Positions 1 through 55,619 of a stretch of 64,000 nucleotides of DNA are shown one piece after another. How positions within the stretch are numbered: the first letter of the stretch is position 1; each line of letters starts with the position of its first letter. Under the pieces are notes generated by a model, which saw only the letters and a list, made by a program, of their open reading frames with translations, was not told the origin of the DNA and ran no database searches. This stretch comes from an uncultured Eubacteriales bacterium (GTDB taxonomy: Bacteria; Acidobacteriota; Aminicenantia; Aminicenantales; Aminicenantaceae), in contig CAYVAT010000004.1 in NCBI GenBank assembly GCA_964449165.1, forward strand, positions 91,317 through 155,316, in the 5' to 3' direction. A program made the translations under genes and the position numbers.

Positions 1-2040
1 TGAAGTGTATTCAGTTGAAGGTGGCGTAAAGTTGGAGGTCCAGCGAGCTATTCCTTTTGATATGCGTATCTCATCCAACCAACCATTAAAATGCTCTTCG
101 TTGCCTCTTGATCCGATATAGAATGTGTTTTTTGAATCGTATATTGAAATAAGCCCCATGTGATGCTTATGACCTATTTGAGAACCATCAACAAATGCCA
201 TAAGATCTGATCCATTTCTTAATATTGCTATGTGATACCACGTATCCAATGAGGGAGACCAAGGAAATCGTGCATCTGTGTTGTTGCTTCCGTCAGTGCT
301 GTATGAAAACTTTAAGCTGTTAAACTCTTCCTCCCAAGCAATCTGCCACGCTTTGTTAGGACTATAATAGGGGTATCCAACGAGAACCTGAGTGCGAGAA
401 GTGCTTGCAAACCTCACCCAAAAATCCACGGTGAAGTTGCCAGAGCCAAACGTCAGACCCTCATTGTCAGCAATCTCCAGACGGCCTCCGTCACCTTTAA
501 ACAGGCCGGCCCCTCCTCCAAATTTAGATTGTAATGTACTAGTATGAGCGTTGCCCTTAATATAACCTAAGGATTTTAATCTTTCTATTAACCTCTTATT
601 TTCCTGTTTGATTTCACGCTCGTGCTTCTTGGAGCTAAGAGTAACTTTCCCCAGGTTCCATTCGAAAGATGACAAGCGTTTTTTCATGCTGGCAAATACA
701 AACTTTAAATGCTCATCTGTTAGGTCGCATTCAGATTCCTCAAAACTTAGATTAAAAAGTTGAGGATATGGAGGTGCGAAACGAAGATGTTTATATTGGT
801 AAGTATTTACAAGTTTAAAATTATCTGTTTGGATGCACTCCATGTAAAAAGAAAGCTGCTGCTGATCGCCTTTGGATATGAGTTGTGAAAAAATATATTT
901 CCTTTTGAACTTTTCGCCATTTATTAAACCTCTCAAGCTTTGGCCTTTAAAGGATGAATCATCAGCGATTTTAAAGTCGGATTTTACGTAATCTAGAATT
1001 GTTGGGAGTATGTCAATATGCTGAACTTTTTCAAGAATTATCTTTCCATTTTTTTGATTCGGCAATAAAATAATGAGCGGTATTTTAATTTGTTCTTCAT
1101 AGAGTGAAGTACCATGCCCATTAATAGCTTGTCCTAAAAAATCTTTTCTCTCCCAGAAAGATTCACCATGGTCAGATGTTAAAATAATAATACTGTTTTT
1201 CATTAAGCCACGTTGTTTCAAATAACTTATCAATTTATGAAACTCGGTATCAAAAAAATTGACTTCCCCCATATAAAGTTTTTTCGAAACGCTTTTTTCT
1301 GTGGGCGTAAAATCGCTCGTATCAACCATAGTCTTAAGTTTCGCTCTTCCAGAAACATGCTTTCTTTCTTCTCCTTTCCCAATATATTTTTCTGTATATT
1401 CGATCGGGGGATCGTAAGGATTATGAGGGTCTATGTACCATAGCATTGCGAAAAACTTTTTGTACCTCTTATTATCAAGCCATTTTATAAACTTACTATT
1501 CACCTCATCGCAGTTAGTGTCTCTCCATCTAGTCTCCTCTATAAAAATATCAAATCCTCTGGCAAGTCCCTGTCTACTACTTACATGCGGATTTGTTGAG
1601 ATGCCAAAAGTCTGATATCCTTTCTTTTTTAACAATTCTGCCATGCTTTTAAATCTAGTAGGCAAGCGCCATCGATAATTGATATACCCGTGGTCGGATG
1701 GATAGACCGAGCAGAATATTGACGGAGCAGAATTCATTGTGTTAGGACTCTGAGCAACTGCATTCTTAAATAGGACTGCGTTTTTAGCAAACTCGTCGAT
1801 GTTTGGGGTAAGAGTACTATTCTTGTTATAACATCCTAGACTGTCAGCTCGCCAAGCATCAACTATCAGTAAAATAATGTTGGGTTCTTCAGGCGGATTT
1901 ATTTTGGTTTCGGTGATTACGCTTAAATATAAAACAATAAGAAAGATAATCAGGATAAACGCTGCTCTTTTAATATAGTTGGCTTTTAGAATCTTTGATG
2001 TTTCTGACCATTTTGATAATGCATTGGTTATTTTATTCAT
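1..2040 (-). CDS. Sulfatase-like (alkaline-phosphatase superfamily) enzyme with an N-terminal TM anchor and a C-terminal LamG/ConA-like jelly-roll domain; 3' end runs off the window at position 1
   Basis: Hand translation of the minus strand from the ATG at 2040: MNKITNALSKW..., TM segment AAFILIIFLIVLYLSVI, metal-binding motifs LIVDAWRADSLG and IIILTSDHGESFWER typical of sulfatase/LtaS/EptA-type enzymes; C-terminal FTVDFWVRF...WYHIAI...MAFVDG...FNGWLDEIRISKGIARW is a LamG_3-type module. No Cys-x-Pro-x-Arg formylglycine motif (the equivalent region reads SAPSIF). Frame still open at nt 1. Confidence 0.7.
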   Translation of the reverse strand, partial: MNKITNALSKWSETSKILKANYIKRAAFILIIFLIVLYLSVITETKINPPEEPNIILLIVDAWRADSLGCYNKNSTLTPNIDEFAKNAVLFKNAVAQSPNTMNSAPSIFCSVYPSDHGYINYRWRLPTRFKSMAELLKKKGYQTFGISTNPHVSSRQGLARGFDIFIEETRWRDTNCDEVNSKFIKWLDNKRYKKFFAMLWYIDPHNPYDPPIEYTEKYIGKGEERKHVSGRAKLKTMVDTSDFTPTEKSVSKKLYMGEVNFFDTEFHKLISYLKQRGLMKNSIIILTSDHGESFWERKDFLGQAINGHGTSLYEEQIKIPLIILLPNQKNGKIILEKVQHIDILPTILDYVKSDFKIADDSSFKGQSLRGLINGEKFKRKYIFSQLISKGDQQQLSFYMECIQTDNFKLVNTYQYKHLRFAPPYPQLFNLSFEESECDLTDEHLKFVFASMKKRLSSFEWNLGKVTLSSKKHEREIKQENKRLIERLKSLGYIKGNAHTSTLQSKFGGGAGLFKGDGGRLEIADNEGLTFGSGNFTVDFWVRFASTSRTQVLVGYPYYSPNKAWQIAWEEEFNSLKFSYSTDGSNNTDARFPWSPSLDTWYHIAILRNGSDLMAFVDGSQIGHKHHMGLISIYDSKNTFYIGSRGNEEHFNGWLDEIRISKGIARWTSNFTPPSTEYTS

Positions 2041-2122: not shown

Positions 2123-3283
2123 TTAGTGTTGTTTCAATTCCCCCTTGTCAATCTTTACCCAGTTCACTTGTGTAATCATCTGATGCAAAGCCGCTTTGGC
2201 CACGGCGACCTGGGTAGCATACTTCGGTGTTGTGCTTGCAGGAAAAGTTGCGAGTGTTGCGTCGCCGACAAGAAAGACATTGAAGTCTTTGCTCAGATTT
2301 TCGTAGCCGCACGTGGTGCTGATGACACACATATCTGTGGCGTATCCGGTCAGTAAAATGTGACGTACACCTTTGCTCTTCAAGTAATCGCGGACTTTTT
2401 GGTACCCTTCATCGTCATAAAACACTATATCGTTTTTTCTCAGCTCGAGAGATTTAACAATCGGAATCGGCAACTGCCCGTATCCTGGTCCGTTATAGTA
2501 GACACTGTCATCCGTGGAGGGAGTGAGACTAAAGTAGCTCTTAACGGGCGTATTTGCGTCAAGTAGAAGGGTTTTTTTCAATGGATTCCCTTCGAACTTG
2601 TGTCTGCTCAACAATTCAGCGAGCAAGTTCTTACCCTGTTCGATGTCCTGTTCTTCAGGCTTTGTTAATATTGAGGAATAGAGAAGCTTTCGAACTTGGT
2701 CTTCCGAGCCCGGCAAAGAATGTCCTACAAGAGAAACATAACCGCGCAACCGGGATAAAAAAGGGTTAATCACGTCCTGAACGTGCATGATCATTAACTT
2801 ATTTTTTTCTGGAGTGCCGAAGAATTTGCACCCCGCAGGTTCGGGCGTTTTCAGTCCATGTCCATCATCGATACCCCAAGGATGGACATTAATAATTGCT
2901 GTTGCTTTTGCCTCAAGTCGATTCTCCATCTCGACAATACCGCGGGCATTGTACCAGTAACGCCAGGACCTAACGAGCATATCGCTGGCCTTCTCGTCCA
3001 CGACCGGCGGTGCTAGAAAACGGTGATCCGATTGCAAAGGTTGGACATATTCTGGATAGTCAGCCAGCAATGGCATAGGATCTTTGATTTTTTCTAAAGT
3101 ATTATAATAATTATTTGTAGATTTTTCTCTTTTATTCAATTCGTACAACGCTTTCAGTTTTTGATTGGCAAACAGTACCAAGGAAATTGTGAGTAGTCCC
3201 CACAAAATTACGGTAATTATGCTTCTTTGTTTATGGGAATTTCTTTTTAGTACTTGCCGCGAATTCTTTACAATTTTAATCAA
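2123..3283 (-). CDS. Membrane-anchored isochorismatase-family (cysteine hydrolase) protein
   Basis: N-terminal TM (IITVILWGLLTISLVLF); C-terminal region HILLTGYATDMCVISTTCGYENLSKDFNVFLVGDATLA resembles the isochorismatase/CSHase catalytic Cys region. Confidence 0.55.
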   Translation of the reverse strand: MIKIVKNSRQVLKRNSHKQRSIITVILWGLLTISLVLFANQKLKALYELNKREKSTNNYYNTLEKIKDPMPLLADYPEYVQPLQSDHRFLAPPVVDEKASDMLVRSWRYWYNARGIVEMENRLEAKATAIINVHPWGIDDGHGLKTPEPAGCKFFGTPEKNKLMIMHVQDVINPFLSRLRGYVSLVGHSLPGSEDQVRKLLYSSILTKPEEQDIEQGKNLLAELLSRHKFEGNPLKKTLLLDANTPVKSYFSLTPSTDDSVYYNGPGYGQLPIPIVKSLELRKNDIVFYDDEGYQKVRDYLKSKGVRHILLTGYATDMCVISTTCGYENLSKDFNVFLVGDATLATFPASTTPKYATQVAVAKAALHQMITQVNWVKIDKGELKQH

Positions 3284-3391: not shown

Positions 3392-4096
3392 TCACTTAAG
3401 AAAATTCAGTATATATTCACAGTGCATAAAATCAAACTCGGTATCGACATCCATCGATTCTTTTTCAGAGATGATTACACCTTTCATGTTCTGGTTATCC
3501 AAGATATTTTCCTTATAAATGATATGAGTTTTCATAGCATCAACCACACCATTGATTCGATAAACAGGCGGCAGAAGTTGACGCTGATAATATTTGCTGA
3601 GTTTTATGTCTCCTGAAATAAGCTCGGCACTTCCGTCTTCGGATAATCTATACATCCAGTAAGGATGGTGAACTCCTTCCACCAGGGTCATCGTCCTTAC
3701 AACATCTGCACCAGTATCTCTTATCTTCTTGACTACCCTGTCAATGATTTGCGGAGTTTTAAACGGGGTGGTAGGTCTTAAGTTTACGACAATCTCAGGC
3801 TCGTAATCATCGTTGTTTTTTAACCATTCAAGGACATGTAAAAAGACTGGCTGGTCAGGAGTGTCACTTTTGGCTAATTCAGCAGGTCTCAGGAAAGGAA
3901 CCTCCGCGCCCCATTTTCGAGCGACCTCTGCTATTTCTTCATCATCTGTTGAAACAACCAGCCGTTCGATTGAAGTCGAGTGCAATGCGGCCTCGATGGT
4001 GTAAGCAATCAAAGGCTTGCCAGCAAGAAGCCTTATGTTTTTCCTCGGAACTCGCCTGGAGCCTCCGCGAGCAGGAATTATGCCCAGCACCTTCAT
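3392..4096 (-). CDS. CMP-nonulosonate (acylneuraminate-family) cytidylyltransferase, copy 1
   Basis: MKVLGIIPARGGSRRVPRKNIRLLAGKPLIAYTIE...VSTDDEEIAEVARKWGAEV matches the NeuA/CMP-NeuAc synthetase-family N-terminus; ATG at 4096 overlaps the upstream TGA (ATGA), so start taken at the internal Met rather than the ORF-track start. Confidence 0.85.
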   Translation of the reverse strand: MKVLGIIPARGGSRRVPRKNIRLLAGKPLIAYTIEAALHSTSIERLVVSTDDEEIAEVARKWGAEVPFLRPAELAKSDTPDQPVFLHVLEWLKNNDDYEPEIVVNLRPTTPFKTPQIIDRVVKKIRDTGADVVRTMTLVEGVHHPYWMYRLSEDGSAELISGDIKLSKYYQRQLLPPVYRINGVVDAMKTHIIYKENILDNQNMKGVIISEKESMDVDTEFDFMHCEYILNFLK

Positions 4097-5229
4097 TTTA
4101 TTTTTTTTACGATATTCTTCAAATTTTCTATTATGTAGTTTTGATCCTCCACCGTAAGACCAACCCACATAGGTAAATCAATGAGTTGCTTCCATGCCTT
4201 GTAGCTCGTAGGATAGGAGTCATTTTTATACCCAAATCTCTTCTGGTAGTAAGGCTGGATGTGAATAGGGGGAAAACTCAATCGAGTGTCGATTCCTCTC
4301 GATTTTAATTCAGATACAACTCTGTCACGATCCAGCCCTTCTTTCAATGAAACGGCATACATATACCAGGCATGGCGATTGACATATTCAGGCACAAAGG
4401 GTGGAGAAATATCAGTGGATTCCCTGAATGCGTCGCTATACCTTTCAGCAATCTTGTTCTTCTCATTCAGAATAAATTCAACTCTCTTGAGCTGCTCGAT
4501 CCCGATAGCTGCTGGAATATCCGTCATACGATAGTTGTATCCCAGGTGAATATGGTGATACCGATAATCCTGTCCCTGGTTGCGAACCTGCCGTGTTAAG
4601 ACAGCTTTTTCATCATCATCGGTTGTGACCATCCCTCCTTCACCTGTTGTGATGTTCTTGTTTGGAAAGAAGCTGAATATATGTAGAGGAGCGATCGATC
4701 CCACCTTTCTCCCTTTATAAACAGCCCCCAGTGATTCTGCACTGTCAGCAATAACAATCAAGCCCTTCTCTTCTGCAAAAGCGAGCAGGTGGTCATAGTC
4801 AACCGGCATCCCATTCATGTCCACTGCAATTATGGCCTTTGTCTTGCCTGTTATTCTCTTCTCGGCATCTTCAAGGGAGATATTATAAGTCTTTGGATCA
4901 CACTCCACCAGAACCGGAATGGCTCGTTCATACAGTACAACATTAGCAGTCGAGATAAATGTTATGGTAGGAATAAGCACTTCATCGCCTTCCTCAATGC
5001 CAGATGAAATCAAGGCAAGGTGCAAAGCCGTCGTTCCACTGTTGGCTGCAATCGCATGTCTAGCTCCCACATACCTCGCAAATTCATTTTCAAATTCCTC
5101 AACCCTCTTCCCCATACTCAACCATCCGGACTTAACCACCTCGTACACAGCCTTAGCCTCTTCCTCACCGAGGTAGGGATTTGCCAAGGGAATATTTTTC
5201 ATTTGTAAGTGCTCCTTCATTTTATTCAT
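4093..5229 (-). CDS. DegT/DnrJ/EryC1/StrS-family PLP-dependent sugar aminotransferase (PseC/LegC/WbpE-like)
   Basis: NPYLGEEEAKAVYEVVKSGWLSMGKRVEEFENEFARYVGARHAIAANSGTTALHLAL...SFFPNKNITTGEGGMV typical of DegT family; true start may be the internal Met at about 5202. Confidence 0.85.
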   Translation of the reverse strand: MNKMKEHLQMKNIPLANPYLGEEEAKAVYEVVKSGWLSMGKRVEEFENEFARYVGARHAIAANSGTTALHLALISSGIEEGDEVLIPTITFISTANVVLYERAIPVLVECDPKTYNISLEDAEKRITGKTKAIIAVDMNGMPVDYDHLLAFAEEKGLIVIADSAESLGAVYKGRKVGSIAPLHIFSFFPNKNITTGEGGMVTTDDDEKAVLTRQVRNQGQDYRYHHIHLGYNYRMTDIPAAIGIEQLKRVEFILNEKNKIAERYSDAFRESTDISPPFVPEYVNRHAWYMYAVSLKEGLDRDRVVSELKSRGIDTRLSFPPIHIQPYYQKRFGYKNDSYPTSYKAWKQLIDLPMWVGLTVEDQNYIIENLKNIVKKIK

Positions 5230-18784: not shown

Positions 18785-19833
18785 TAGAATTCCTTTAAAT
18801 CATTTTGTGCCTTTCTCAGATCCTCCATCTGACCTATATCCACCCAGTATTCATGTATGGGAAAGGTTGTGACTGGCAGCCCTTTTCTCACCAGCTCTTT
18901 GATTAAATCAGTCATGTCAAATGCTGTATTTGCAGGAATGAGGGATAATGCTTCAGGATTAAGCATGTAAATGCCGGCGTTACAAAGGAACCTCTGGTCG
19001 GGTTTTTCTTCAATCCCTAAAAGATAATGGCTGGATATATTGAGAACGCCAAAAGGAATATTCAACGTGTATTGTGTTGCTGCTACGGTCATAACACATC
19101 TGTGCAGCTTGTGGAACTCGATCAACCTTAGGAAATTGGTCTTTGTTATCACATCACCATTGATCACGAGAAGGGGGCTTGATGGAATCTCTGGTAAAAG
19201 CGTCAAGGCACCGGCTGTACCTAATTCTTTTTTCTCCTTCAGATAGGAAATGTTTACGCCATATTGGGAGCCGTCCTTAAAATAATCTTCAATCATCTCA
19301 GTTTTGTAGTTTAAGGAGATGTAGATATTAACAATTCCGCTTTCTTTTAAGTAATTGATGATATTCTCTAAGATGGGCTTATTACCCACTTTTATCATGG
19401 GTTTTGGAATATTTTCTGTAACAGGTCTTAAACGTTTACCTTTGCCGCCGGCCATAATGACTGCAAATTGATAAGCGTCCAGTTCAGAAACGATGTCTCT
19501 GAGATGTATAATCTTTAATGGACAGCCGTTCCTGTCAAGGATGGGAATGTTCCTGATCAAGTGTTTATTCATCAACTCTTTCAGTTCTTTTTCTGAAGTC
19601 CCATGAGGAGCGGTCAAGGGTTTGGTCCACATAACATCGGTCACAGGCTCATCAATGGAGCATCCTGCGAGAAGGAAGCGTCTGATATCACCGTCTGTAA
19701 CTGTGCCCTTTAAACATCCCTTTGTATCCACAATAAGGGCAATCCCCTGTTTATTTTTATCTATCACTCCCATACACTCGCGAACGGTGGCTGATTCCTT
19801 TAAACAAAATTGATTTATATTTTTGTCCTTCAT
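18784..19833 (-). CDS. CBS-pair + sugar-phosphate nucleotidyltransferase fusion (PtmE-like hexosamine-1-phosphate nucleotidyl/guanylyltransferase)
   Basis: N-terminal CBS pair (TVTDGDIRRFLL...) followed by AVIMAGGKGKRLRPVTENIPKPMIKVGNKPIL NTP-transferase signature; start set at ATG 19833 (ATGA overlap with upstream stop) rather than the ORF-track start at 19947, whose N-terminal extension overlaps the upstream gene. Confidence 0.8.
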   Translation of the reverse strand: MKDKNINQFCLKESATVRECMGVIDKNKQGIALIVDTKGCLKGTVTDGDIRRFLLAGCSIDEPVTDVMWTKPLTAPHGTSEKELKELMNKHLIRNIPILDRNGCPLKIIHLRDIVSELDAYQFAVIMAGGKGKRLRPVTENIPKPMIKVGNKPILENIINYLKESGIVNIYISLNYKTEMIEDYFKDGSQYGVNISYLKEKKELGTAGALTLLPEIPSSPLLVINGDVITKTNFLRLIEFHKLHRCVMTVAATQYTLNIPFGVLNISSHYLLGIEEKPDQRFLCNAGIYMLNPEALSLIPANTAFDMTDLIKELVRKGLPVTTFPIHEYWVDIGQMEDLRKAQNDLKEF

Positions 19834-21038
19834 CAGTATGTCATCCTTTTCTGGAGTAAACGCATATTTATATCGATTGTTGCCAGGACATGCGCTATCT
19901 GTTCTCCTGCATTCCCGGCACCATAAGGATTTTTCGAGTTTCTGCATCGTCTTCTGAATCCTTCATCATCCAAAGCCTTTCTTACCGCATTGATGATTTC
20001 GTCCCTGTTATAACCCACATCAATGACGTTATCTGCTCGCAAACGGCCATTCTGTCTTGACCCGACATTAACCACAGGACACCCCAGGGCCGGTGTCTCT
20101 TTTATGCCACTGGAGGAATTTCCTACGCAGACTCCTCTTCCTGCTCTTCCACAGATATTCAGGACTCCATGATAATTGTAGCGCCCCAGGCTCTTATAAA
20201 TCCGAAGATTCTTGAGTCTCTCTTTCCTTAATTTTTCGATCTCCTTTATAATTCGCCTCCCTCCGGCATCATTATTCGGGTAAGTGACGATAACCTGGCA
20301 GCCTTCCTTTGCCAGGATACGCATGGCTTCTAAAGAGGGCCTGACCTGTTGAGCTGCTTTTTCAAATTCGGTGGTCACAGAGTGCTGGGTAAACAGGATG
20401 ACCGGTTTATCAGGTATGAGACCGTAGGTTTCCTCGATTTCAGCAGGTGTGGCAAAATGACCAGCAACGATGAGGTCAATTGCGGGGAATCCCACATTGT
20501 AGATCCTCCAGCGCTCCTCTCCCAGGAGTCGTACACGCTCTGCTGCCTGTTCATTGGTGGTAAAATGGAGGTGTGACAACTTAGTCATTGCATGACGTAC
20601 AGAATCATCCAGGGCTCCTCCCTCTGTAATATCTCCTCCTTCTACATGGGCGGTGGGAATGTTCATCTGGGTTGCAGTTATGACCGCAGAGAATCCCTCA
20701 AAACGATCAGCATAGACAACAAGGAAATCAGGTCTTATTTTGTCCAGGATGCGGCTCAAACTCAAGATCCCAGAACCAATTGCTTGAGCTGTGGAGAACA
20801 GGGTATCTTCCTCCATTTCAATCTTTACTTCAGCATATACCTTAAAACCGTCTTTCTCGATTTCCTTCAGTGTATAGCCGAAGTCTTCCTGAAGATGTGC
20901 TCCTGAAACCAATAAAAAGTATTCCAGCTCAGGATGGGCGTCTATTGCCTTCAAGATAGGATATTGAAGCCCGTATTCAGCACGGTTTCCTGTAAAAACG
21001 GCAATTTTTCTTTTATTGGAGGGTATTTTTCTAGTCAT
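19833..21038 (-). CDS. UDP/GDP-N-acetylglucosamine 2-epimerase (hydrolysing), NeuC/LegG family
   Basis: KIAVFTGNRAEYGLQYPILKAI...HVEGGDITEGGALDDSVRHAMTKLSHLHF typical of NeuC-type 2-epimerases. Confidence 0.85.
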   Translation of the reverse strand: MTRKIPSNKRKIAVFTGNRAEYGLQYPILKAIDAHPELEYFLLVSGAHLQEDFGYTLKEIEKDGFKVYAEVKIEMEEDTLFSTAQAIGSGILSLSRILDKIRPDFLVVYADRFEGFSAVITATQMNIPTAHVEGGDITEGGALDDSVRHAMTKLSHLHFTTNEQAAERVRLLGEERWRIYNVGFPAIDLIVAGHFATPAEIEETYGLIPDKPVILFTQHSVTTEFEKAAQQVRPSLEAMRILAKEGCQVIVTYPNNDAGGRRIIKEIEKLRKERLKNLRIYKSLGRYNYHGVLNICGRAGRGVCVGNSSSGIKETPALGCPVVNVGSRQNGRLRADNVIDVGYNRDEIINAVRKALDDEGFRRRCRNSKNPYGAGNAGEQIAHVLATIDINMRLLQKRMTY

Positions 21039-22002
21039 ATCCCTTGAGTGTTAATGACAGTCCTTCAGATAATGTATATCTAGGCTTCCATCCAGTAAAT
21101 TTTTTTAGAAGGCTGTTGTCAAGGATCAGCGTTGAATTTGAAGGCTCATAATTACCTTGTGGTTGAACTTCGTTGATGGGAACAGAGCCTATGCGGCTTG
21201 CCATCTTAACCAGATTAAAAACAGTTGTTCCGATCCCAGTTGATAAATTGACAGTATAACATCCATGCTTATCTGTGGAAACAAATAGATGTATCAGGCC
21301 TTCAATAACATCATCGACGTATATGAAATCTCTTATCGGGGTTAAATCACGAACAACAATTCTTTCGCCATTTTTAATTCTTTTTATAACAGTGCTAACA
21401 ACCGTATCTTCATTGCTTCCTAGCCCATAGACATTGCCTAATCTAGCGATAAAACAGGTTATTTTAAAACTCTTTGAATGACCTGTTATTATTGCTTCTG
21501 CGGATAATTTCAAGCCGGCGTAGATATTTTGAGGAGTTGGGGAAGTTTCCTCGGTCACCGGCTGCCTATGATAATCTCCGTAAACAAGCCCGGTGGATGG
21601 GAAAATGAATTTCCCTATTTTGTTTTGTCTGCAAAATTCTAATGCCTGAAAAGTCAGTAATACATGTGATTTGAAGGCCTTTAGCGGATTTTCTTCACAC
21701 TCTCCTGCGTGAGCAATGCCTGCCATATGAAATACAGCGGTTATACCTCTTTTTTCTGACAGCAGTTCAGATAGTGCTTCATCTGATTTCTCAGGAAAAC
21801 CCCCATGGATAAAACGAAAGGAATTATGCAGGATAATTTCGGCAGAATGTTTCGGAAATTGTTTGTTGGAATCAATCCCAACAACAAATGCTCCATTATC
21901 CAGGAGAGCCTTCACTAAACGGCTGCCCAAGAATCCGCTGGCCCCTGTGACCAGGATTCCGTATCTTTCTAAACTACCAGTTTTCGATATCATCGGGGCC
22001 AA
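21031..22002 (-). CDS. NAD-dependent epimerase/dehydratase-family SDR
   Basis: ILVTGASGFLGSRLVKAL Rossmann motif, YAGLK YxxxK. Confidence 0.75.
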   Translation of the reverse strand: MAPMISKTGSLERYGILVTGASGFLGSRLVKALLDNGAFVVGIDSNKQFPKHSAEIILHNSFRFIHGGFPEKSDEALSELLSEKRGITAVFHMAGIAHAGECEENPLKAFKSHVLLTFQALEFCRQNKIGKFIFPSTGLVYGDYHRQPVTEETSPTPQNIYAGLKLSAEAIITGHSKSFKITCFIARLGNVYGLGSNEDTVVSTVIKRIKNGERIVVRDLTPIRDFIYVDDVIEGLIHLFVSTDKHGCYTVNLSTGIGTTVFNLVKMASRIGSVPINEVQPQGNYEPSNSTLILDNSLLKKFTGWKPRYTLSEGLSLTLKGYD

Positions 22003-23011
22003 TCTGAGAGTCCTTTTGAATATCTCTTGCGGCTTTCTTGCCCAGTACCCTGTTAAGTTCGGGTGCTAAAATGGCTCCAGTCCCGGGTCTTTTTACCCAT
22101 GTGTTTTCAAGAGAGAACACTTTTCCAGCCCTTACAGGAGCAATGGCCACAACAGAGGCATAGGCAAAATCGATGACTGGTTGTTCCTCCGGCAGGATAG
22201 TTTTATGGCCACCCAGGGCTGAAAATATTGCTTTTGAACCTTTTACTAGCTCTGTCAGCTCATCTGGCTCTATAGAAATTGGAACGTCGGGACCGGGCCA
22301 CTCACGAGTTATCGTGAAGTGTTTTTCAAGGGCAGCAGCCCCTAATGCCACAGCACCCAGGCATGTGTATATGCCGATGGAATGATCACTTAGCCCGACA
22401 GGTAAACCAAACATATCCTGCAGCTCCTTTATAGCGCCGAGACGAACCTTTTCATATGGGGTCGGATACATAGAAGTGCAATGCATCAGCATGAGAGGTG
22501 TTTCATATTTTTGAATAGCCTTAACTGATTTTTTAATGGATTCCACATCATTCATTCCAGTTGATAATATTATTGGCTTTCCGAACTTGGTGATATGTTC
22601 CAATAGGGGAATATTGTTGCATTCACCTGAGCCGATCTTGAAAGCTGAGACATTTATAGACTGGAGACGGTCTGCTGCCTCTCTGGAAAAGGGAGTACAG
22701 AGGTATATGATTCCTTTGTCTTCACAGTATTTCTTTATCCGTATTTCCTCCTCCCCAGTCAGCTCGCATCTCTTTATTATGTCCCAAAGACGCTCTTCGG
22801 ATATCTCACCTGGTTTCATGTCTGTGGGAATCATTTCAGCCTCTGTGATATGACTTTGAAATTTTACACAGTCAGCCCCTGCCTTGACTGCCGCATCCAC
22901 ACACTGGATTGCTTTATCAAAGCTCCCTTCATGATTGATGCCTACCTCGGCTATTATAAAAGGTGGATATTGAGGGCCGATTTTACGGTGATTTATCTGG
23001 AATTCCATCAT
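21974..23011 (-). CDS. NeuB-family nonulosonic acid synthase, copy 2
   Basis: FIIAEVGINHEGSFDKAIQCVDAAVKAGADCVKFQSH plus C-terminal SAF domain; clearly paralogous to, but distinct from, copy 1. Confidence 0.85.
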   Translation of the reverse strand: MMEFQINHRKIGPQYPPFIIAEVGINHEGSFDKAIQCVDAAVKAGADCVKFQSHITEAEMIPTDMKPGEISEERLWDIIKRCELTGEEEIRIKKYCEDKGIIYLCTPFSREAADRLQSINVSAFKIGSGECNNIPLLEHITKFGKPIILSTGMNDVESIKKSVKAIQKYETPLMLMHCTSMYPTPYEKVRLGAIKELQDMFGLPVGLSDHSIGIYTCLGAVALGAAALEKHFTITREWPGPDVPISIEPDELTELVKGSKAIFSALGGHKTILPEEQPVIDFAYASVVAIAPVRAGKVFSLENTWVKRPGTGAILAPELNRVLGKKAARDIQKDSQIGPDDIENW

Positions 23012-23101: not shown

Positions 23102-23956
23102 TCACCAGGCTGTCCAGCCGCCATCGATGACCAGAGTCGCCCCTGTCATGTAGCGGGATGCATCGCTGGCAAGGAAGAGGATGGCACCGTTATAATCTGA
23201 CCAGGTGGCCATTCTTCCTAAGGGAGTGCGTTTCACATATTCTTTATGGAATGAGCTCTCCTGGCCGTCATAGACACCACCCGGGACGAGAACATTGACC
23301 CTGACATTGAATTCTCCCCATGATGCTGCCAGATGCCTTGCTAATCCTATCAATCCTGCCTTGGATGCAGAATAGGAGGCAGGACAATTCAACGGGTCAG
23401 CACCTCCATAAATATTTTTTTCTGGTGAGCAACCTTTGTAGATCCTCTGGTCTGGCCCCACGATGCCGTATATAGAAGAAGTTAAGACGATTGAACCTGC
23501 GCGGGATTTTTTCATGTAGTTTACAGCCTCCCGGCAGCACAAAAAAGCTCCGGTCATATTTCCATTCAAAATACTCTTCCATGTGCTTACAGGATACTGG
23601 TCTAAAGGCCTATAATATCCATCTGGTTTTGTCATGACGTTGTAGATAAGGATATCCACTCTTCCCCAAGAATGATGAATCTTTTTGAATAACTCTTGAA
23701 CCTCCATTTCTTTGCTCGCATCGCATTTCAACCCCATCACAGAAGTGCCTGTCAGAGTCGTAACCTCTTTTGCCACAGCTTTACATTTTCTGGCATCGAT
23801 ATCACCTAGTGCGACATTTGCCTGTGCATATCCTAATGTAATGGCAAACTGTCTCCCCATCTTTCCTGCTCCGCCAATGATGACTGCTGTCTTTCCTTTC
23901 AGGTTGAAGAGGGACTCAACCTTATTGAGTTCGGGTATTTTAGAGTAGTCAGACAT
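23102..23956 (-). CDS. Classical short-chain dehydrogenase/reductase (PtmA-like)
   Basis: KTAVIIGGAGKMGRQFA TGxxxGxG-like motif, YSASK catalytic YxxxK. Confidence 0.8.
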   Translation of the reverse strand: MSDYSKIPELNKVESLFNLKGKTAVIIGGAGKMGRQFAITLGYAQANVALGDIDARKCKAVAKEVTTLTGTSVMGLKCDASKEMEVQELFKKIHHSWGRVDILIYNVMTKPDGYYRPLDQYPVSTWKSILNGNMTGAFLCCREAVNYMKKSRAGSIVLTSSIYGIVGPDQRIYKGCSPEKNIYGGADPLNCPASYSASKAGLIGLARHLAASWGEFNVRVNVLVPGGVYDGQESSFHKEYVKRTPLGRMATWSDYNGAILFLASDASRYMTGATLVIDGGWTAW

Positions 23957-24668
23957 TTGTTACCTCTCTGGATTGTTTCATTAAGAATTCGACAATCTTA
24001 AAATCCAATTCCGTATCAATATGAATGGACCGCTCTTCTGGAACCAGAAAGAGACGAGTACGAGGGGGGATTCGCTTGCCGATATCCATGATTGCCTCTC
24101 TTGAGTATATCCATACGGTGGTGTCAAGATCATACACAGGAGGGCACTCCTGACGGCATCCTATATCCCTGTCTGTGGGCATCAATATCTGGACAAAACC
24201 GTCTTCTAAACAAACCATATTAAAATAAGGGCTGCGGTGCGCTTCACATCCAGAGACTACGGCTTGGCAGGCACCATCATGGTGAAACAGTGACAAGGCT
24301 TCTTCTACGTCCTTGACCTTACGCAGGGGGCTGGTTGGATCTAACAATACTAGTATCTTCACTCTTTCTCTGTATATTTCCTCAACGGACTGAACGGCAT
24401 GCTGCATCACCGGCAGCATCGGTGTGTCATCCTTTGCCAATTCAGGAGGCCTGATAAAAGGGACCTCAGCTCCCCATTTTCTCGAAATTTCTGCGATCTC
24501 CGAATCGTCTGTTGAAACGATTGGCTTATCTATAAAAGAGCAGGCCCGTGCACACTCGACAGTATAAGATATCAAAGGTTTTCCCAAAAGGTGTCTGATG
24601 TTTTTCTTTTTTATACCCTTTGATCCACCCCTTGCAGGAATAAGTCCGAGCACCAGACCTGAATTCAT
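23949..24668 (-). CDS. CMP-nonulosonate cytidylyltransferase, copy 2 (LegF/PtmB/NeuA-like)
   Basis: LGLIPARGGSKGIKKKNIRHLLGKPLISYTVE...VSTDDSEIAEISRKWGAEV. Confidence 0.85.
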   Translation of the reverse strand: MNSGLVLGLIPARGGSKGIKKKNIRHLLGKPLISYTVECARACSFIDKPIVSTDDSEIAEISRKWGAEVPFIRPPELAKDDTPMLPVMQHAVQSVEEIYRERVKILVLLDPTSPLRKVKDVEEALSLFHHDGACQAVVSGCEAHRSPYFNMVCLEDGFVQILMPTDRDIGCRQECPPVYDLDTTVWIYSREAIMDIGKRIPPRTRLFLVPEERSIHIDTELDFKIVEFLMKQSREVTNV

Positions 24669-37443: not shown

Positions 37444-39768
37444 TCAAATTTCTTGATCATTAAAGTGAATTAATAAGATTGTAAATGAGTCTTTAGTGTA
37501 TTCACCTGAATTTGGAGTAAAATTGGAGCCCCATCGGGCTATTCCCTTTGATATGCGTATCTCATCCAGCCAGCCATTGAAATGCTCTTCAGCGCCTCTG
37601 GATCCGATATGGAGCGGAGCTTCTGAATCGTATATTGAGACCTGCCCTATATCATGACTTTCACCTAGCTGAAAGCCATCAACAAAGGCCATAAGGTCTG
37701 AATCCTTCCTGACTATGGCTATGTGGTACCATCTATCCTTTGATGCAGACCAGTGGAACTTCGCATCCGTGTCGTTTTCTCCATCTGAACTATAGGAGAA
37801 CTTTATGCTTTTCGATTCTCCCTCCCATGCAATCTGCCATGCCTTGTCAGGACTGTAATACGGGTAGCCAACGAGAACCTGAGTTCCAGATGTATGTACA
37901 AATCTCACCCAGAAATCTATCGTGAAGTCTTCCGAGCTAAATGCCCAGCCTGGACGGTCTGCAACCTGCAGGTGGCTTCCGGCTCCATCAAAGAAAACAG
38001 ATGCACTGCCAAATTTTGGGTGTGCTGTATCAATCCGAACATTTCCATGAGGTATTATACTTCCCAACCGGAAGAGTTTGAATATGCCAATATGATAGAT
38101 TTCGGTGACATCGAACTCTTGATCCTTGATCCTTATTTTCTTTGGTTTATTTTGAAGTTGACTGAGAACAGGATCCTTATCCCAAGACCTGAATGAGGCA
38201 ATATATTTGATGTCTTTAATAAATAGATTTTTTGTATAATATGTAACAATATTTTTCTCGGGTATATCAGAAAGATAAGTAGCACAGGGCACCATTTTTC
38301 CAGGCATTAGTATCATTTCCTCGTTTTTCACTCTGTTTTTGACAACATTTAATCCAGCTTTTAAATCCCACAAACCGCCATACATATTATTGACTGTTGA
38401 TATGTGAGTGGAGACTAATGGAGTTATCAGCAAAAATAGAGGCAATAATAATAAATGACCTTTCGACCTGAAATGCCCTACTTTAAAAAAAACGTATACA
38501 CAGATTGGCAGAAATATTAAAAATCTTTTGAGGCTGTTTATATCAAAGCTGAGACTGAAAAACTCATGGTATGAATTTCTTATATACGGTGTGTTGAAAG
38601 CGCTATAAGCTACAATAATTCCCAATATTCCCAAAATAGATGCCACGATTATTTTTTTTTGATGTGGCCATCGCTTTAGAAAATATTCAATACCAGCGAT
38701 TGTATAAAGAGGGAACATCCACTCAATGAAATAGAAAAATCGCCAGGTTGTGTAGAAATAAAACCACAGGAAGAACAAGTACGCCAGAAAAAAGGTGTGC
38801 ACCTTCCAGTTGTTCAGCTTATTAAATTTAATCAGATGGAATAATCCAATCAAAATAATTAAAATGTTAATAATCCATACTATTTGTACCCACCAACTGC
38901 TATGAAATCTGGTTTCAGGCGTTACAGAAGCCCAATGATCAGCTGGCAAATAGGATAAGGTTATGGTACGCAACAGGGAAATAAAATCTCCTGTTGGCTT
39001 GCTTGTAACAAAAAGTTTATGCTTGAACAGGGCTGGAATATATCCACCTTTACCGATGAAAAAAAAATGATTGACCAGCAGCCAGATGGCAGAAGGCAGA
39101 AGGACGATAAAAGTTAGAAATATTAGACGCCATTTTTTTTTAGTAATAATTTTGGGCAAATTGGCAAGCACCGCTAATGCTGCGTCATACCGAGTAAATG
39201 CAGCGAGACCAGAGATGGACAAGGAGAGTTTTTCATTTGTGACATAAAAGGAGAGAAGGATCAGGACCAGCATTGTAGCCTCAGGTAGGGGTTGTGTTCC
39301 ACAATAGAGAGAAAGGCTTGAAAAAGCAAAAATCCAGCTGACAAGGAATGAATTTTTTATTCCGATCTTCTTGCTTATCTTATAGATAAGAATTATCGAA
39401 CATAGATAAGTGAAATTACTCAGAAGGATACCAGAATAAAGGATAGCTTTCTTTACTGAAATAAGCTGTGAAACCAATCCCATTAGCAGAGGGAAAAGAG
39501 GTTCTCTTAAAGTTCCAAATGGCAGATTAAAATGAAGCAGTGCTTCAGTAATATCCTTAAAAGCAAAAAAATCGCTTAAAGGAGAATAGTATTTTCCAGA
39601 GAGTAAAACTAGATAATAACAAGATATTCCTAATGTTAATGCAAGGGCCGAGATAGAAGCGACATCCTTCTTTTTGGGGTAATCACTATTTTGTGGTTTT
39701 TCACACAGTGGGAATTTGCTTTTTTTGGGTTGCAGCAATTCTCTCCATTTTTTATTCAAATTTAACAA
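37444..39768 (-). CDS. Polytopic GT-C-type membrane glycosyltransferase (ArnT/PMT-like) fused to a C-terminal LamG/ConA-like domain
   Basis: About 12 predicted TM helices over the first 450 aa with the loop and TM pattern of ArnT/GT39/GT83 enzymes; last 180 aa (FTIDFWVRFVHTSGTQVLVGYPYYSPDKAWQIAWEGE...FNGWLDEIRISKGIARW) about 70 percent identical to the C-terminus of the sulfatase-like protein at 1-2040. Confidence 0.6.
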   Translation of the reverse strand: MLNLNKKWRELLQPKKSKFPLCEKPQNSDYPKKKDVASISALALTLGISCYYLVLLSGKYYSPLSDFFAFKDITEALLHFNLPFGTLREPLFPLLMGLVSQLISVKKAILYSGILLSNFTYLCSIILIYKISKKIGIKNSFLVSWIFAFSSLSLYCGTQPLPEATMLVLILLSFYVTNEKLSLSISGLAAFTRYDAALAVLANLPKIITKKKWRLIFLTFIVLLPSAIWLLVNHFFFIGKGGYIPALFKHKLFVTSKPTGDFISLLRTITLSYLPADHWASVTPETRFHSSWWVQIVWIINILIILIGLFHLIKFNKLNNWKVHTFFLAYLFFLWFYFYTTWRFFYFIEWMFPLYTIAGIEYFLKRWPHQKKIIVASILGILGIIVAYSAFNTPYIRNSYHEFFSLSFDINSLKRFLIFLPICVYVFFKVGHFRSKGHLLLLPLFLLITPLVSTHISTVNNMYGGLWDLKAGLNVVKNRVKNEEMILMPGKMVPCATYLSDIPEKNIVTYYTKNLFIKDIKYIASFRSWDKDPVLSQLQNKPKKIRIKDQEFDVTEIYHIGIFKLFRLGSIIPHGNVRIDTAHPKFGSASVFFDGAGSHLQVADRPGWAFSSEDFTIDFWVRFVHTSGTQVLVGYPYYSPDKAWQIAWEGESKSIKFSYSSDGENDTDAKFHWSASKDRWYHIAIVRKDSDLMAFVDGFQLGESHDIGQVSIYDSEAPLHIGSRGAEEHFNGWLDEIRISKGIARWGSNFTPNSGEYTKDSFTILLIHFNDQEI

Positions 39769-42586: not shown

Positions 42587-43561
42587 TTAGTCTGCTCGGT
42601 ATAGCTTCCTCTTAGATATATAATAATCAGCATAATAGTGAGAACATTCTTCGCACAAGGAAGGAGGCTTCTTTAGGAGATGCTTTTTCCTCATTTCCCT
42701 CATGATTTTATTTTTGAATAGACTCTGGAGATTTTCTCTTTTTGCATTTCCTATGACCATTTTTCCATCAAAATCCACACAACACGGAACAACATCTCCA
42801 TTCCACAAAACTACCAAGATTCGCCAGAGTTCCCGGCAGGGAGTATAATTTTTCTTGGTAATAGTAAAAAATTTTGGCTGGATATTCACAAAATCTGCCT
42901 TATTTTTCCATCTGATGAAAAAAGAATCAATCTCTGCAGTCGTCTCGTTAAATATCAGCATGGAAACTTCTACCCAGGTCTTTTTTTTAGAATCATTCCT
43001 CATCTGAATGAAATTTAATATATTAGACTCAATTTTTTCATAGGGAAAACCTCTCACTCTTTGATAGGTTTCCTTGCCTCCATCTACTGAAAACTTTATT
43101 ATATCCAATCCGCTTTCCAGGAGTTCTCTGGTAAGAGATTTATCCAGAAGAGTTCCATTCGTTGTTAAAGCTGTTTGCTTTCCTCTTGAATGGGCATAAC
43201 GAATCATTTCTATGATATCAGGGTGAATTAATGGTTCTCCCCAGTTGGTTAGATAAACTCTTTGAATCTCAGGATTTAAATCGATGATTTTTTTAAAAGT
43301 TTCAAATTTCATATATCCTTTTTCCCTCTTCATCTCTTTCGGTACAGGACAGCAGATACATTCAAGGTTACAAGTGTTGTTTGTTTCGATACCGACAGTT
43401 GTCAGTTTATATGCTCCAGGAATATGAGCAAGGCGGAAGAATTGATTAAGTGTTTCGCTAAATATCAATTTAGGGGTTGAATATCGAGCGAGAAGGGAAG
43501 GGAACAGCTTTGATTTGTTAAAAATTTTTGTAGTAATTAATCGAACGAGACTCTTATACAT
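42587..43561 (-). CDS. Radical SAM enzyme with C-terminal SPASM/twitch-like Cys-rich domain
   Basis: CNLECICC (CxxxCxxC), SVDG motif, C-terminal CCVDFDGKMVIGN...LCEECSHYY cysteine cluster. Confidence 0.75.
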   Translation of the reverse strand: MYKSLVRLITTKIFNKSKLFPSLLARYSTPKLIFSETLNQFFRLAHIPGAYKLTTVGIETNNTCNLECICCPVPKEMKREKGYMKFETFKKIIDLNPEIQRVYLTNWGEPLIHPDIIEMIRYAHSRGKQTALTTNGTLLDKSLTRELLESGLDIIKFSVDGGKETYQRVRGFPYEKIESNILNFIQMRNDSKKKTWVEVSMLIFNETTAEIDSFFIRWKNKADFVNIQPKFFTITKKNYTPCRELWRILVVLWNGDVVPCCVDFDGKMVIGNAKRENLQSLFKNKIMREMRKKHLLKKPPSLCEECSHYYADYYISKRKLYRAD

Positions 43562-43565
43562 CTTA

Positions 43566-44399
43566 TTAACGTGGTTTCTTAACTAAAAAAACAATCAAAT
43601 AGCCGTAATGCCTAAAGAATTCAAAGTGGTTATAGAGTGCCTCAAAAGGGGCTAGAAGGACCTCTGTTATTTTCGTTAAAGGGCGGAAATGGACATATGA
43701 AAAGAGATCTAGAATTCTTAATATTCCTGGCATAAAAAGTAAAGAAGATTGATCAAGTATTATGAAATCATTTTTTTTTAAAATCTGAGCCATCTGCTTT
43801 TTCGAAAATGACTTCTCATACCCGAAGGAATAAAGGCCTAGTTTTTGAAGCAAGAAAACCTGGAAAGGCCTTAGAAAGGGATCATATTTGTTGGGAACAC
43901 CTATAATTGCTTTGCCATCAGGTTTCAGCACCCGATACATTTCTTGGCAAGCTTTATCATATTCTAAGAAATGCTCTGCTGTTCCCATCGAATACACATA
44001 ATCAAAACAATCATTCGAGAAAGGAAGATATCTGAGATCAGCGACATTAAGAAAAAGATTATTCTCACCGGTTTTCGTGGCATCAAGAGCTTGACGAGTA
44101 ACAAAGAAGGAAATGTCCACACCGAACGCTTTGGCTTTTTCTGTGAGAATCCATTTTAGGATTCGGGTGTTTTTAGCCTCATTCCACAAGTCTGTTTTCA
44201 AGATGCTCTTCCCCTCTAAGTTAGAAAAATAATTGGAGATTATTCTCTTTTCTTGATTAAAATATATTTTTGTAGAGGGGGATCCATAAAAAGATTTAAT
44301 ATCTTTTGCGGCTCGGTTCCAGAACTGTTTAAGCTTATTTTCCGAGAAATCTTCCGGCGTTTTATTCTTTTTTGACCGGATATGTCTTAAATTTTTCAT
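43566..44399 (-). CDS. Class I SAM-dependent methyltransferase (Methyltransf_11-like)
   Basis: ...LRYLPFSNDCFDYVYSMGTAEHFLEYDKACQEMYRVLKPDGKAIIG... motifs II and III of class I MTases. Confidence 0.7.
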   Translation of the reverse strand: MKNLRHIRSKKNKTPEDFSENKLKQFWNRAAKDIKSFYGSPSTKIYFNQEKRIISNYFSNLEGKSILKTDLWNEAKNTRILKWILTEKAKAFGVDISFFVTRQALDATKTGENNLFLNVADLRYLPFSNDCFDYVYSMGTAEHFLEYDKACQEMYRVLKPDGKAIIGVPNKYDPFLRPFQVFLLQKLGLYSFGYEKSFSKKQMAQILKKNDFIILDQSSLLFMPGILRILDLFSYVHFRPLTKITEVLLAPFEALYNHFEFFRHYGYLIVFLVKKPR

Positions 44400-54836: not shown

Positions 54837-55619
54837 ATGACGGATTTTCAGGGACAAAAAACTGCGAAAGCATTTCTTCTTGCTCTTTTTTTCTTTCTGA
54901 TTTCCATCAGCACGCTTCTCGGAGAGAAAGCTCCCAAAATAATGTTCAAGCATGAATCCTGGGATTTTGGCAGAGTAGACCAGGGAAAGATACTGACCCA
55001 TGTCTTTCCTTTCAGCAATGATGGGGATGATACCCTGCATATCAACAGGGTGAGGACTTCGTGTGGGTGCACGGCTGCCCTTGTCTCAGAAGATAAGGTT
55101 CTGCCCGGAAAAACGGGTGAAATAAAAGTCGATTTCAACACACAGGGATATGAAGGCGAGGTCAGCAAATACATCTATGTAGAGACCAATGATCCTCAAA
55201 ACCCGAAAAAACAACTGACTATCACAGCCCGGATAAACGTTCCTCCTCGCCCGAGAATAGACCTTGATCGCTACAGTATAGACATCGGTCTGATCCTGGA
55301 TACAGAGGAGATCAGGGCCAAGACAAAAATCAAAAACAGAGGGGAATTGGAACTGAAAGTGGACTGTTCTCATCAGGACGCAACATTTTATCGAGAAGGG
55401 AAGGAGATTTCTTTCCCCCTTAGAATCCCTGCCGGGAAGGAGGAAGAGGTGGAGATAAAAATACCACCACGCAAGAAAAACGGATTGATCCGGGAATATG
55501 TCTTGATTAAGTCCAACGACCCTTATCGGGGAACTCTCTCCTTGTATTTAAGCGGATATGTGGTGAATAAAAGGCAGCTCAAAGAGCTTTTTGCCAAATA
55601 CAGAGACATTATAGATTAG
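54837..55619 (+). CDS. DUF1573 (Ig-like, CGCT-motif) domain protein with signal peptide
   Basis: HESWDFGRVDQGKILTHVFPFSNDGDDTLHINRVRTSCGCTAALVS is the DUF1573 signature. Confidence 0.7.
   Translation: MTDFQGQKTAKAFLLALFFFLISISTLLGEKAPKIMFKHESWDFGRVDQGKILTHVFPFSNDGDDTLHINRVRTSCGCTAALVSEDKVLPGKTGEIKVDFNTQGYEGEVSKYIYVETNDPQNPKKQLTITARINVPPRPRIDLDRYSIDIGLILDTEEIRAKTKIKNRGELELKVDCSHQDATFYREGKEISFPLRIPAGKEEEVEIKIPPRKKNGLIREYVLIKSNDPYRGTLSLYLSGYVVNKRQLKELFAKYRDIID

Follow-up and report, generated by a model that had tools for sequence, protein, structure and literature searches.

Well-studied head-group transferases (EptA/B, CptA, OpgB, OpgE, BcsG, PbgA and LtaS) have, according to the literature, four or five transmembrane (TM) helices, and the processed soluble form of OpgB, which still moves phosphoglycerol between glucan residues, offers a precedent for a soluble transferase. 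In MCR-1, E246, T285, D465 and H466 are the ligands of Zn1 and T285 is the phospho-acceptor, while H395 and H478 form a Zn2- or phosphoryl-binding His pair and E468 orients H478; mutation of E246, T285 or H395 abolishes resistance, and mutation of H478 or E468 reduces it (PMC5216409). According to SulfAtlas, many members of the Pfam family PF00884 carry Thr, which gives no formylglycine, and should not be named sulfatases; that such proteins are not sulfatases is already known (PMC5066984). Here we describe a Thr-type PF00884 gene at the left end of a 64,000-nucleotide stretch (the window; contig CAYVAT010000004.1, positions 91,317 to 155,316, assembly GCA_964449165.1) from an uncultured bacterium of the Aminicenantaceae. 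On sequence and model comparisons, the product is an enzyme that unites a scaffold of the S1-sulfatase/phosphonate monoester hydrolase (PMH) type, C-terminal beta subdomain included, with a catalytic set of the EptA/MCR-1 type. It is almost certainly not a sulfatase, and the balance of the sequence evidence tilts modestly towards phosphoryl transfer via phospho-Thr101 on a phosphate-containing group of a surface glycan, by transfer or hydrolysis.

The gene (1..2040, minus strand, as are all features of the protein given below) begins with an ATG at 2040 and runs as an uninterrupted frame out of the left edge of the window, which holds 680 of 709 amino acids (aa); in the translation, a stop lies six codons upstream of Met1. 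A word-indexed search of 5.8 billion proteins recovered the full-length version (P0001, 709 aa), which differs from the window copy at two residues. Its gene is carried by two near-identical metagenome contigs, L001 and L002, with 99.8% nucleotide identity to the window within the enzyme gene (4 nt differences) and 100% upstream. The contigs therefore extend the window leftwards, and we take L001 to come from the same organism. With only 4 nt differences, a selection test against these contigs had no power.

The Sulfatase model of Pfam (PF00884) matches aa 53-352 far beyond chance (E 1.7e-44) and SGSH_C, the C-terminal sulfatase subdomain, matches aa 313-417; the two-subdomain sulfatase fold is present. 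The catalytic alkaline-phosphatase-superfamily domain, of S1-sulfatase architecture, accordingly spans 790..1884, with its core at aa 53-352 and the C-terminal beta-sheet subdomain reaching aa 417. A hydropathy scan found a single N-terminal membrane helix at aa 26-44 (1909..1965), a signal anchor of N-in/C-out orientation, and the AlphaFold2 (AF2) model has a helix spanning aa 2-47. Six Lys/Arg residues precede the membrane helix (aa 1-25) and acidic residues follow it. By the positive-inside rule, the basis of the topology call, the catalytic and lectin domains should therefore face the periplasm; both are predicted to be extracytoplasmic and tethered by one helix, in agreement with the topology that a first-pass annotation of the DNA, made from the letters alone, had given for the catalytic domain. 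Behind the catalytic part stands the motif L-K-S-L-G-Y-I (aa 488-494; 559..579), which is family-wide, with L488, L491, G492 and Y493 nearly invariant, and which forms the C-terminal end of most homologues and here the fusion point to an added domain. The added part is a LamG/concanavalin-A-like lectin domain (aa 519-662; 55..486; Pfam PF13385, Laminin_G_3, E 1.5e-18, 67.8 bits against a cut-off of 27.6), absent from the first-pass description. The AF2 model is confident for aa 50-490 (predicted local distance difference test, pLDDT, >90); its confidence is low for the LamG part, the cause being few aligned sequences.

The first-pass annotation had pointed to the motifs DAWRAD (aa 61-66; 1843..1860) and SDHGE (aa 289-293; 1162..1176), and had read SAPSIF (aa 104-109) where the formylglycine motif C/S-x-P-x-R is expected. 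All three are present in the translation, and it is correct that the Cys/Ser, the Pro and the Arg of the motif are missing; the register, however, was three residues too late. Three independent alignments place Thr101 at the nucleophile position, which rules out SAPSIF as the equivalent of CxPxR; the equivalent pentapeptide is T101-M-N-S-A105 (1726..1740). When the enzyme was aligned by phmmer with solved sulfatases, the Thr of the query segment S-P-N-T-M-N-S-A was paired with the Ser of 7oz8 (S-T-P-A-R) and, in 4upi (A-G-P-S-R), with the modified residue. A profile alignment to Escherichia coli AslA (S-S-P-T-R) agrees on Thr101, allowing an arbitrarily placed one-residue gap. Although the earlier register was wrong, realignment uncovered no hidden canonical motif, and C/S-x-P-x-R occurs nowhere in the aligned region.

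The third alignment links the enzyme to the phosphoethanolamine transferases. A profile of 119 family members aligned by hhalign to MCR-1 with a probability of 98.1% (E 1.3e-13), and with MCR-1 numbering checked, the pairs (enzyme/MCR-1) are D61/E246, T101/T285, H206/H395, D290/D465, H291/H466, E293/E468 and H309/H478; hhalign to E. coli EptA yields the same pairing. The reference sequences were E. coli EptA, OpgB, AslA and YejM, and MCR-1.1 from NZ_MH043624. D61, in DAWRAD, and D290 and H291, in SDHGE, are predicted metal ligands, His206 lies in D-P-H-N-P-Y (1423..1425), and His309, in N-G-H-G-T (1114..1116), replaces the sulfate-binding Lys of sulfatases and PMH. The enzyme thus resembles EptA, MCR-1 and EptC in its Thr nucleophile, its metal ligands (E/D, T, D, H), its His pair and its orienting Glu, and, in the wider family, in the motif DHGE-x3-E-x5-HG; the comparison also takes in the periplasmic position of the catalytic domain and an action on glycolipids of the envelope. 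The Thr at the nucleophile position, and a metal site and two flanking His that match EptA/MCR-1, uphold the first-pass view that this is not a true formylglycine sulfatase.

The catalytic residues are kept far beyond the window copy. Two homologue sets were compared, 119 proteins from metagenomes and 107 family members from 80 GTDB genome loci, about 226 in total. Thr stands at position 101 in 115 of the 119 metagenome homologues (Ser in three more) and in 103 of the 107 GTDB members; the corresponding counts are 118/119 and 101/107 for D61, 119/119 and 104/107 for H206, and 117/119 and 100/107 for H309. Conservation is near-complete also at R64, D66, S104, H117, Y256, D264, D290, H291, G292, E293, E297, D343 and K409. 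Since Thr101 is conserved across both sets, it is not the product of chance or decay, and the retention of the catalytic residues in nearly all of the homologues, which belong to many phyla, argues for catalysis. This retention, in the window copy and across the family, speaks against a non-catalytic glycan- or lipopolysaccharide (LPS)-binding or regulatory protein, a pseudo-enzyme like YejM/PbgA in which the LamG domain would do the work, and we consider such a role quite improbable. The hhalign match to E. coli YejM is also weaker (E 5.4e-7), in that alignment the conserved DHGE and His set is missing from YejM (PbgA, LapC), and the enzyme scores 37.5 against a cut-off of 825 with the YejM model of NCBIfam.

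The scaffold itself is nearest to that of sulfatases. Every one of the top 50 Foldseek matches in the PDB is an S1 sulfatase, a choline sulfatase or a PMH, and the best NCBIfam matches are arylsulfatase (147 bits), choline sulfatase and PehA. In S1 sulfatases and PMH, a formylglycine derived from Cys or Ser occupies the position that is Thr here, and the other sulfatase determinants are lost or changed to His: the Arg of CxPxR corresponds to Ala105, the G-K-W-H segment of AslA, with its K-x-H dyad, falls in a deletion of the enzyme, and the distal Lys that PMH carries thirteen residues after the DH pair (DHAEMMGDHWMLGKG) corresponds to His309 (family consensus DHGExFxEHxxxGHG). The scaffold could suggest a sulfate-handling enzyme, either a formylglycine-independent sulfatase or a sulfuryl-transferase, and genes resembling arylsulfotransferases (PF14269) do neighbour the family in 7 of the 80 GTDB loci and in the locus L008, while a weak sulfotransferase match lies near the homologue P0016. 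Such a function is nevertheless highly improbable, given that the C/S-x-P-x-R motif is missing, that the sulfate-binding Arg and Lys are replaced and that Thr cannot yield formylglycine (PMC5066984). Among the scanned open reading frames (ORFs) of at least 150 aa in the 64-kb window and its L001 extension, no gene resembling the formylglycine-generating enzyme (FGE) or the anaerobic sulfatase-maturating enzyme (anSME) was found, and the window holds no arylsulfate sulfotransferase (ASST)-like gene. A variant in which sulfuryl transfer would proceed independently of 3'-phosphoadenosine-5'-phosphosulfate, together with the ASST-like neighbours, is still more exotic.

The nearest relatives, with 50-62% identity in the catalytic domain and lengths of 630-670 aa, end at ...ERLKSLGYI and carry an N-terminal domain of about 200 aa with about five predicted TM helices; in the AF2 model of one of them (P0002), the N-terminal TM helices are modelled with good confidence. 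When the window protein is aligned with these relatives, its first 50 residues cover the last part of TM4, the juxtamembrane segment 'KLKW..K..K..YIRK' and TM5, which makes the helix at aa 26-44 homologous to their TM5. The window copy has therefore lost TM1-4, and a LamG domain has been added behind its LGY motif. Of the 101 classified GTDB members of the wider family, 89 have no or one TM helix; as these forms predominate, both architectures are normal for the family. The family occurs in Planctomycetota, Acidobacteriota, Aminicenantes, Myxococcota, Nitrospirota, Omnitrophota, Kiritimatiellia and others, and the closest homologue in a genome is that of a Pirellulales metagenome-assembled genome (L012). 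Around the nucleophile, the wider family reads W-T-x-P-S-H or similar and the close subfamily T-I-N-S-A. In their source annotations the homologues go under the names 'arylsulfatase A-like enzyme' or 'sulfatase'. A single polysaccharide locus commonly holds further paralogues of the Thr-type enzyme, in tandem or nearby, with 27 extra copies over the 80 GTDB loci; examples lie at 19367-21694 of L010 and 12065-13990 of L011, and the paralogues in several loci also carry Thr.

The first-pass annotation had thought the protein more likely to be of the LtaS/EptA/OpgB type than a true sulfatase. Membership of that type is not supported for the window copy, which lacks the four to five N-terminal TM helices, scores far below the NCBIfam cut-offs (LtaS 28.7/970, EptA 18.9/561, PRK11598 11.7/660) and is nearer to S1 sulfatases and PMH. 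LtaS, LtaP, OpgB and GacH do share with the enzyme the PF00884 domain with a Thr nucleophile and the extracytoplasmic modification of glycans; in the close subfamily the motif opens with T-x-N, much as that of LtaS does (T-x-N-x-E), and the activity of processed soluble OpgB belongs to the same likeness. A classical head-group transferase of the LtaS/EptA/OpgB/GacH type would move the head group of phosphatidylethanolamine or phosphatidylglycerol from a membrane phospholipid to the glycan. The active-site residues, identical to those of EptA/MCR-1, are in favour of such an activity, and so are the nearest relatives, which have the architecture of that class and lie in polysaccharide clusters. 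We take Pgt1 and Pet1 of Acinetobacter baumannii to be polytopic enzymes of the LtaS/EptA type, and they are likened to the window enzyme by description, not by sequence. They are predicted phosphoglycerol and phosphoethanolamine transferases encoded in surface-polysaccharide loci, some with nonulosonic acids, and the presence of similar pgt/pet genes in Acinetobacter capsule loci lends the classical activity some further support, although these genes are annotated by prediction, often without an established role (PMC9676051). Because the window copy has no polytopic domain, direct use of a phospholipid donor is less likely here than for the relatives, and having lost TM1-4 it may act like processed soluble OpgB, on glycan-borne groups rather than directly on a membrane lipid. 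It is at least as likely that the window copy works in the manner of soluble OpgB, or as an esterase, as that it uses a lipid donor directly, and the classical transferase is an unlikely, if serious, alternative.

The fold, the residues and the context lead us to infer the following reaction, its substrate and its possible directions, transfer or hydrolysis. A divalent metal held by D61, T101, D290 and H291 would activate the hydroxyl of Thr101 for attack on phosphorus in a phosphodiester or phosphomonoester, and the phosphoryl group would become covalently bound as phospho-Thr101. The leaving group would be assisted by H206 and by H309, which E293 orients, and these two His would also bind either a second metal or the oxygens of the phosphoryl group. 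Phospho-Thr101 could then be resolved by a glycan hydroxyl, giving transfer, or by water, giving hydrolysis; the outcome would be that a phosphodiester-linked substituent, such as a phosphoethanolamine or phosphoglycerol type of group, is added, moved or removed. The genomic context and the lectin domain make the LPS or surface polysaccharide that this locus produces, with its nonulosonic acids, the most likely substrate.

Several observations weigh against phosphoryl transfer on a surface glycan. No member of the clade is characterised, and beyond the general SulfAtlas remark on Thr we found no literature on a Thr-type S1-like enzyme. No known phosphotransferase is as near to the enzyme in overall sequence and fold as are formylglycine sulfatases and PMH, and the enzyme is without the polytopic membrane domain by which known head-group transferases reach their lipid donor. 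The locus has no evident donor or precursor gene for a phospho-substituent. When all ORFs from the 80 GTDB loci of the wider family were clustered all-against-all, no conserved partner gene emerged and only tandem paralogues recurred, so that the inference from context draws on the close subfamily only; ASST-like genes were counted in 7 of these loci and NPP-like genes in 4.

What is new is a large uncharacterised clade that appears to unite the S1/PMH scaffold with an EptA-type centre and, among the matches listed, an architecture unique to the window copy, with one TM helix, the catalytic domain and LamG. Since the clade sits in surface-polysaccharide loci, its enzymes probably carry out a so far unrecognised modification, or processing step, of capsule or LPS in poorly studied phyla. 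The window gene is very probably misnamed as a 'sulfatase', as the other recovered homologues of the Thr type probably are too, and such misnaming affects the sulfatase counts used in ecological inference. The result is useful for correcting annotation and for leads on glycan modification, and would not surprise a specialist. The remodelling of the window copy, with four TM helices lost and a shared lectin module gained, could reveal how such enzymes are targeted to glycans.

With regard to the lectin domain, an exhaustive search of 1.84 billion representatives found no other protein that combines the catalytic domain with LamG among the best 150 matches. The 11,068 matches of this search at E<=1e-30 are not a measure of the size of the enzyme family, because the list is swamped by giant multi-LamG proteins. 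A second LamG domain occurs in the window at the C-terminus of a 774-aa polytopic membrane protein (37444..39768, minus strand), which has at least seven hydrophobic helices and whose aa 1-556 match no Pfam family. The two LamG domains share 67% aa identity over 178 aa (E 9e-83) and 77% nucleotide identity over 451 bp, and that of the 774-aa protein is, by this measure, a recent paralogue of the enzyme's LamG. The G+C content (GC) of the LamG segments is 0.43-0.45 in both genes and that of the remainder, in the enzyme the catalytic part, is 0.355. The identity and the GC contrast suggest that a resident lectin module was fused to two low-GC envelope genes.

Its gene content marks the locus as one for LPS or another surface glycan with nonulosonic acids, in a Gram-negative bacterium (GC about 43%). 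A minus-strand block from position 1 to about 27000 contains two NeuB-type synthases (10338-11393 and 21974-23011), two CMP-sugar synthetases (3392-4168 and 23949-24668), a CBS-domain nucleotidyltransferase (18784-19947), a hydrolysing-type 2-epimerase and Wzz, together with PglD-like acetyltransferase, DegT, dehydratase, AsnB-like and FkbM-methyltransferase genes. The paired NeuB and CMP-sugar synthetase genes and the CBS-nucleotidyltransferase suggest two nonulosonic-acid pathways, of the legionaminic/pseudaminic type, in one locus. Two adjacent genes of the block encode glycosyltransferases of the BFO_1060 family (11497-12963 and 12976-14571, minus strand). Beyond the block lie genes for LptD, a WaaL-like ligase, a heptosyltransferase (GT9) and a WaaP-like kinase. 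The setting in a glycan cluster, already recognised in the first-pass annotation, extends to the homologues, which lie in glycan biosynthesis clusters: among nine contexts (this locus, seven look-ups of close homologues and the GTDB locus L012), eight are polysaccharide clusters of the Wzx/Wzy type, the exception being the context of P0004.

This tight association with Wzx/Wzy clusters, often beside the flippase gene, also bears on another possible function, that of a phosphodiesterase or pyrophosphatase on the glycan linked to undecaprenyl diphosphate (Und-PP), which would free the finished polymer from its lipid carrier or pass glycan-1-phosphate on to an acceptor. A Wzz co-polymerase domain is fused to one homologue, the enzyme also matches the Pfam family Phosphodiest (E 1.2e-10), and a second metal site could be made up of D204, H206 and H309. 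The Thr-nucleophile NPP enzymes of the superfamily cleave pyrophosphate and phosphodiester bonds. To our knowledge, the enzyme that releases or re-attaches the finished chain is still unassigned for many exported polysaccharides. Even with these points, we regard an Und-PP-directed activity as improbable. It is just as doubtful that the whole Thr-type clade on the sulfatase scaffold represents unrecognised periplasmic enzymes of the Wzx/Wzy pathway that cut or transfer at the Und-PP pyrophosphate and release or re-attach the chain; if it did, the window copy would be a lectin-guided, TM-reduced version of an Und-PP-acting enzyme.

The first-pass annotation also had the gene terminate the glycan operon and inferred a final periplasmic decoration step. 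Neither survives the leftward extension on L001, where glycan genes continue downstream and no terminator-like site follows the enzyme gene. After a gap of 185 bp, just left of the window, comes a B12-binding radical S-adenosylmethionine (SAM) gene on the same strand (L001 4381-5955, 524 aa), and further downstream are GT-C glycosyltransferase, lyase-like, polysaccharide deacetylase, DegT, GNAT, GT2 and AsnB-like genes. These downstream genes contradict a role as the final step.

The protein encoded directly upstream of the enzyme (2123-3283, minus strand) is 386 aa long; it too has a TM helix near its N-terminus (aa 21-39), and its only match is a partial one to isochorismatase/cysteine hydrolases (aa 294-349, E 6.7e-9). 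The product may be a second membrane-anchored tailoring hydrolase; no counterpart was seen beside the enzyme homologues examined. The best matches of the B12-binding radical SAM protein on L001 are generic class-B families (BchE, BzaD and the PhpK-type P-methyltransferase), all far below cut-offs. As a candidate anSME, this protein was rejected together with the SPASM radical SAM protein encoded at 42587-43561, since comparisons with NCBIfam and E. coli AslB revealed only generic radical-SAM similarity. The latter gene belongs to a pair of radical SAM/SPASM and methyltransferase genes (42587-44399, minus strand) with a GC of 0.356, embedded in an LPS-core region that also holds PfkB kinase, PHP, WaaL-like and GT9 genes. 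A DUF1573 protein is encoded on the plus strand at 54837-55619. DUF1573 is typical of Planctomycetota, and with the Pirellulales genome match (L012) it would point to a probable planctomycete source, despite the GC of about 43%; the assembly itself is classed in the Aminicenantaceae. Outside the window, the PF14269 arylsulfotransferase-like genes adjoin Thr-type genes in L033, L039, L047, L058, L068, L073 and L076, and also in L008 (4774-8202), which is the polysaccharide cluster of the homologue P0020. The PF14269 representative that was checked contains a segment '...EALEAIGY...', reminiscent of the C-terminal LGY motif of the enzyme family.

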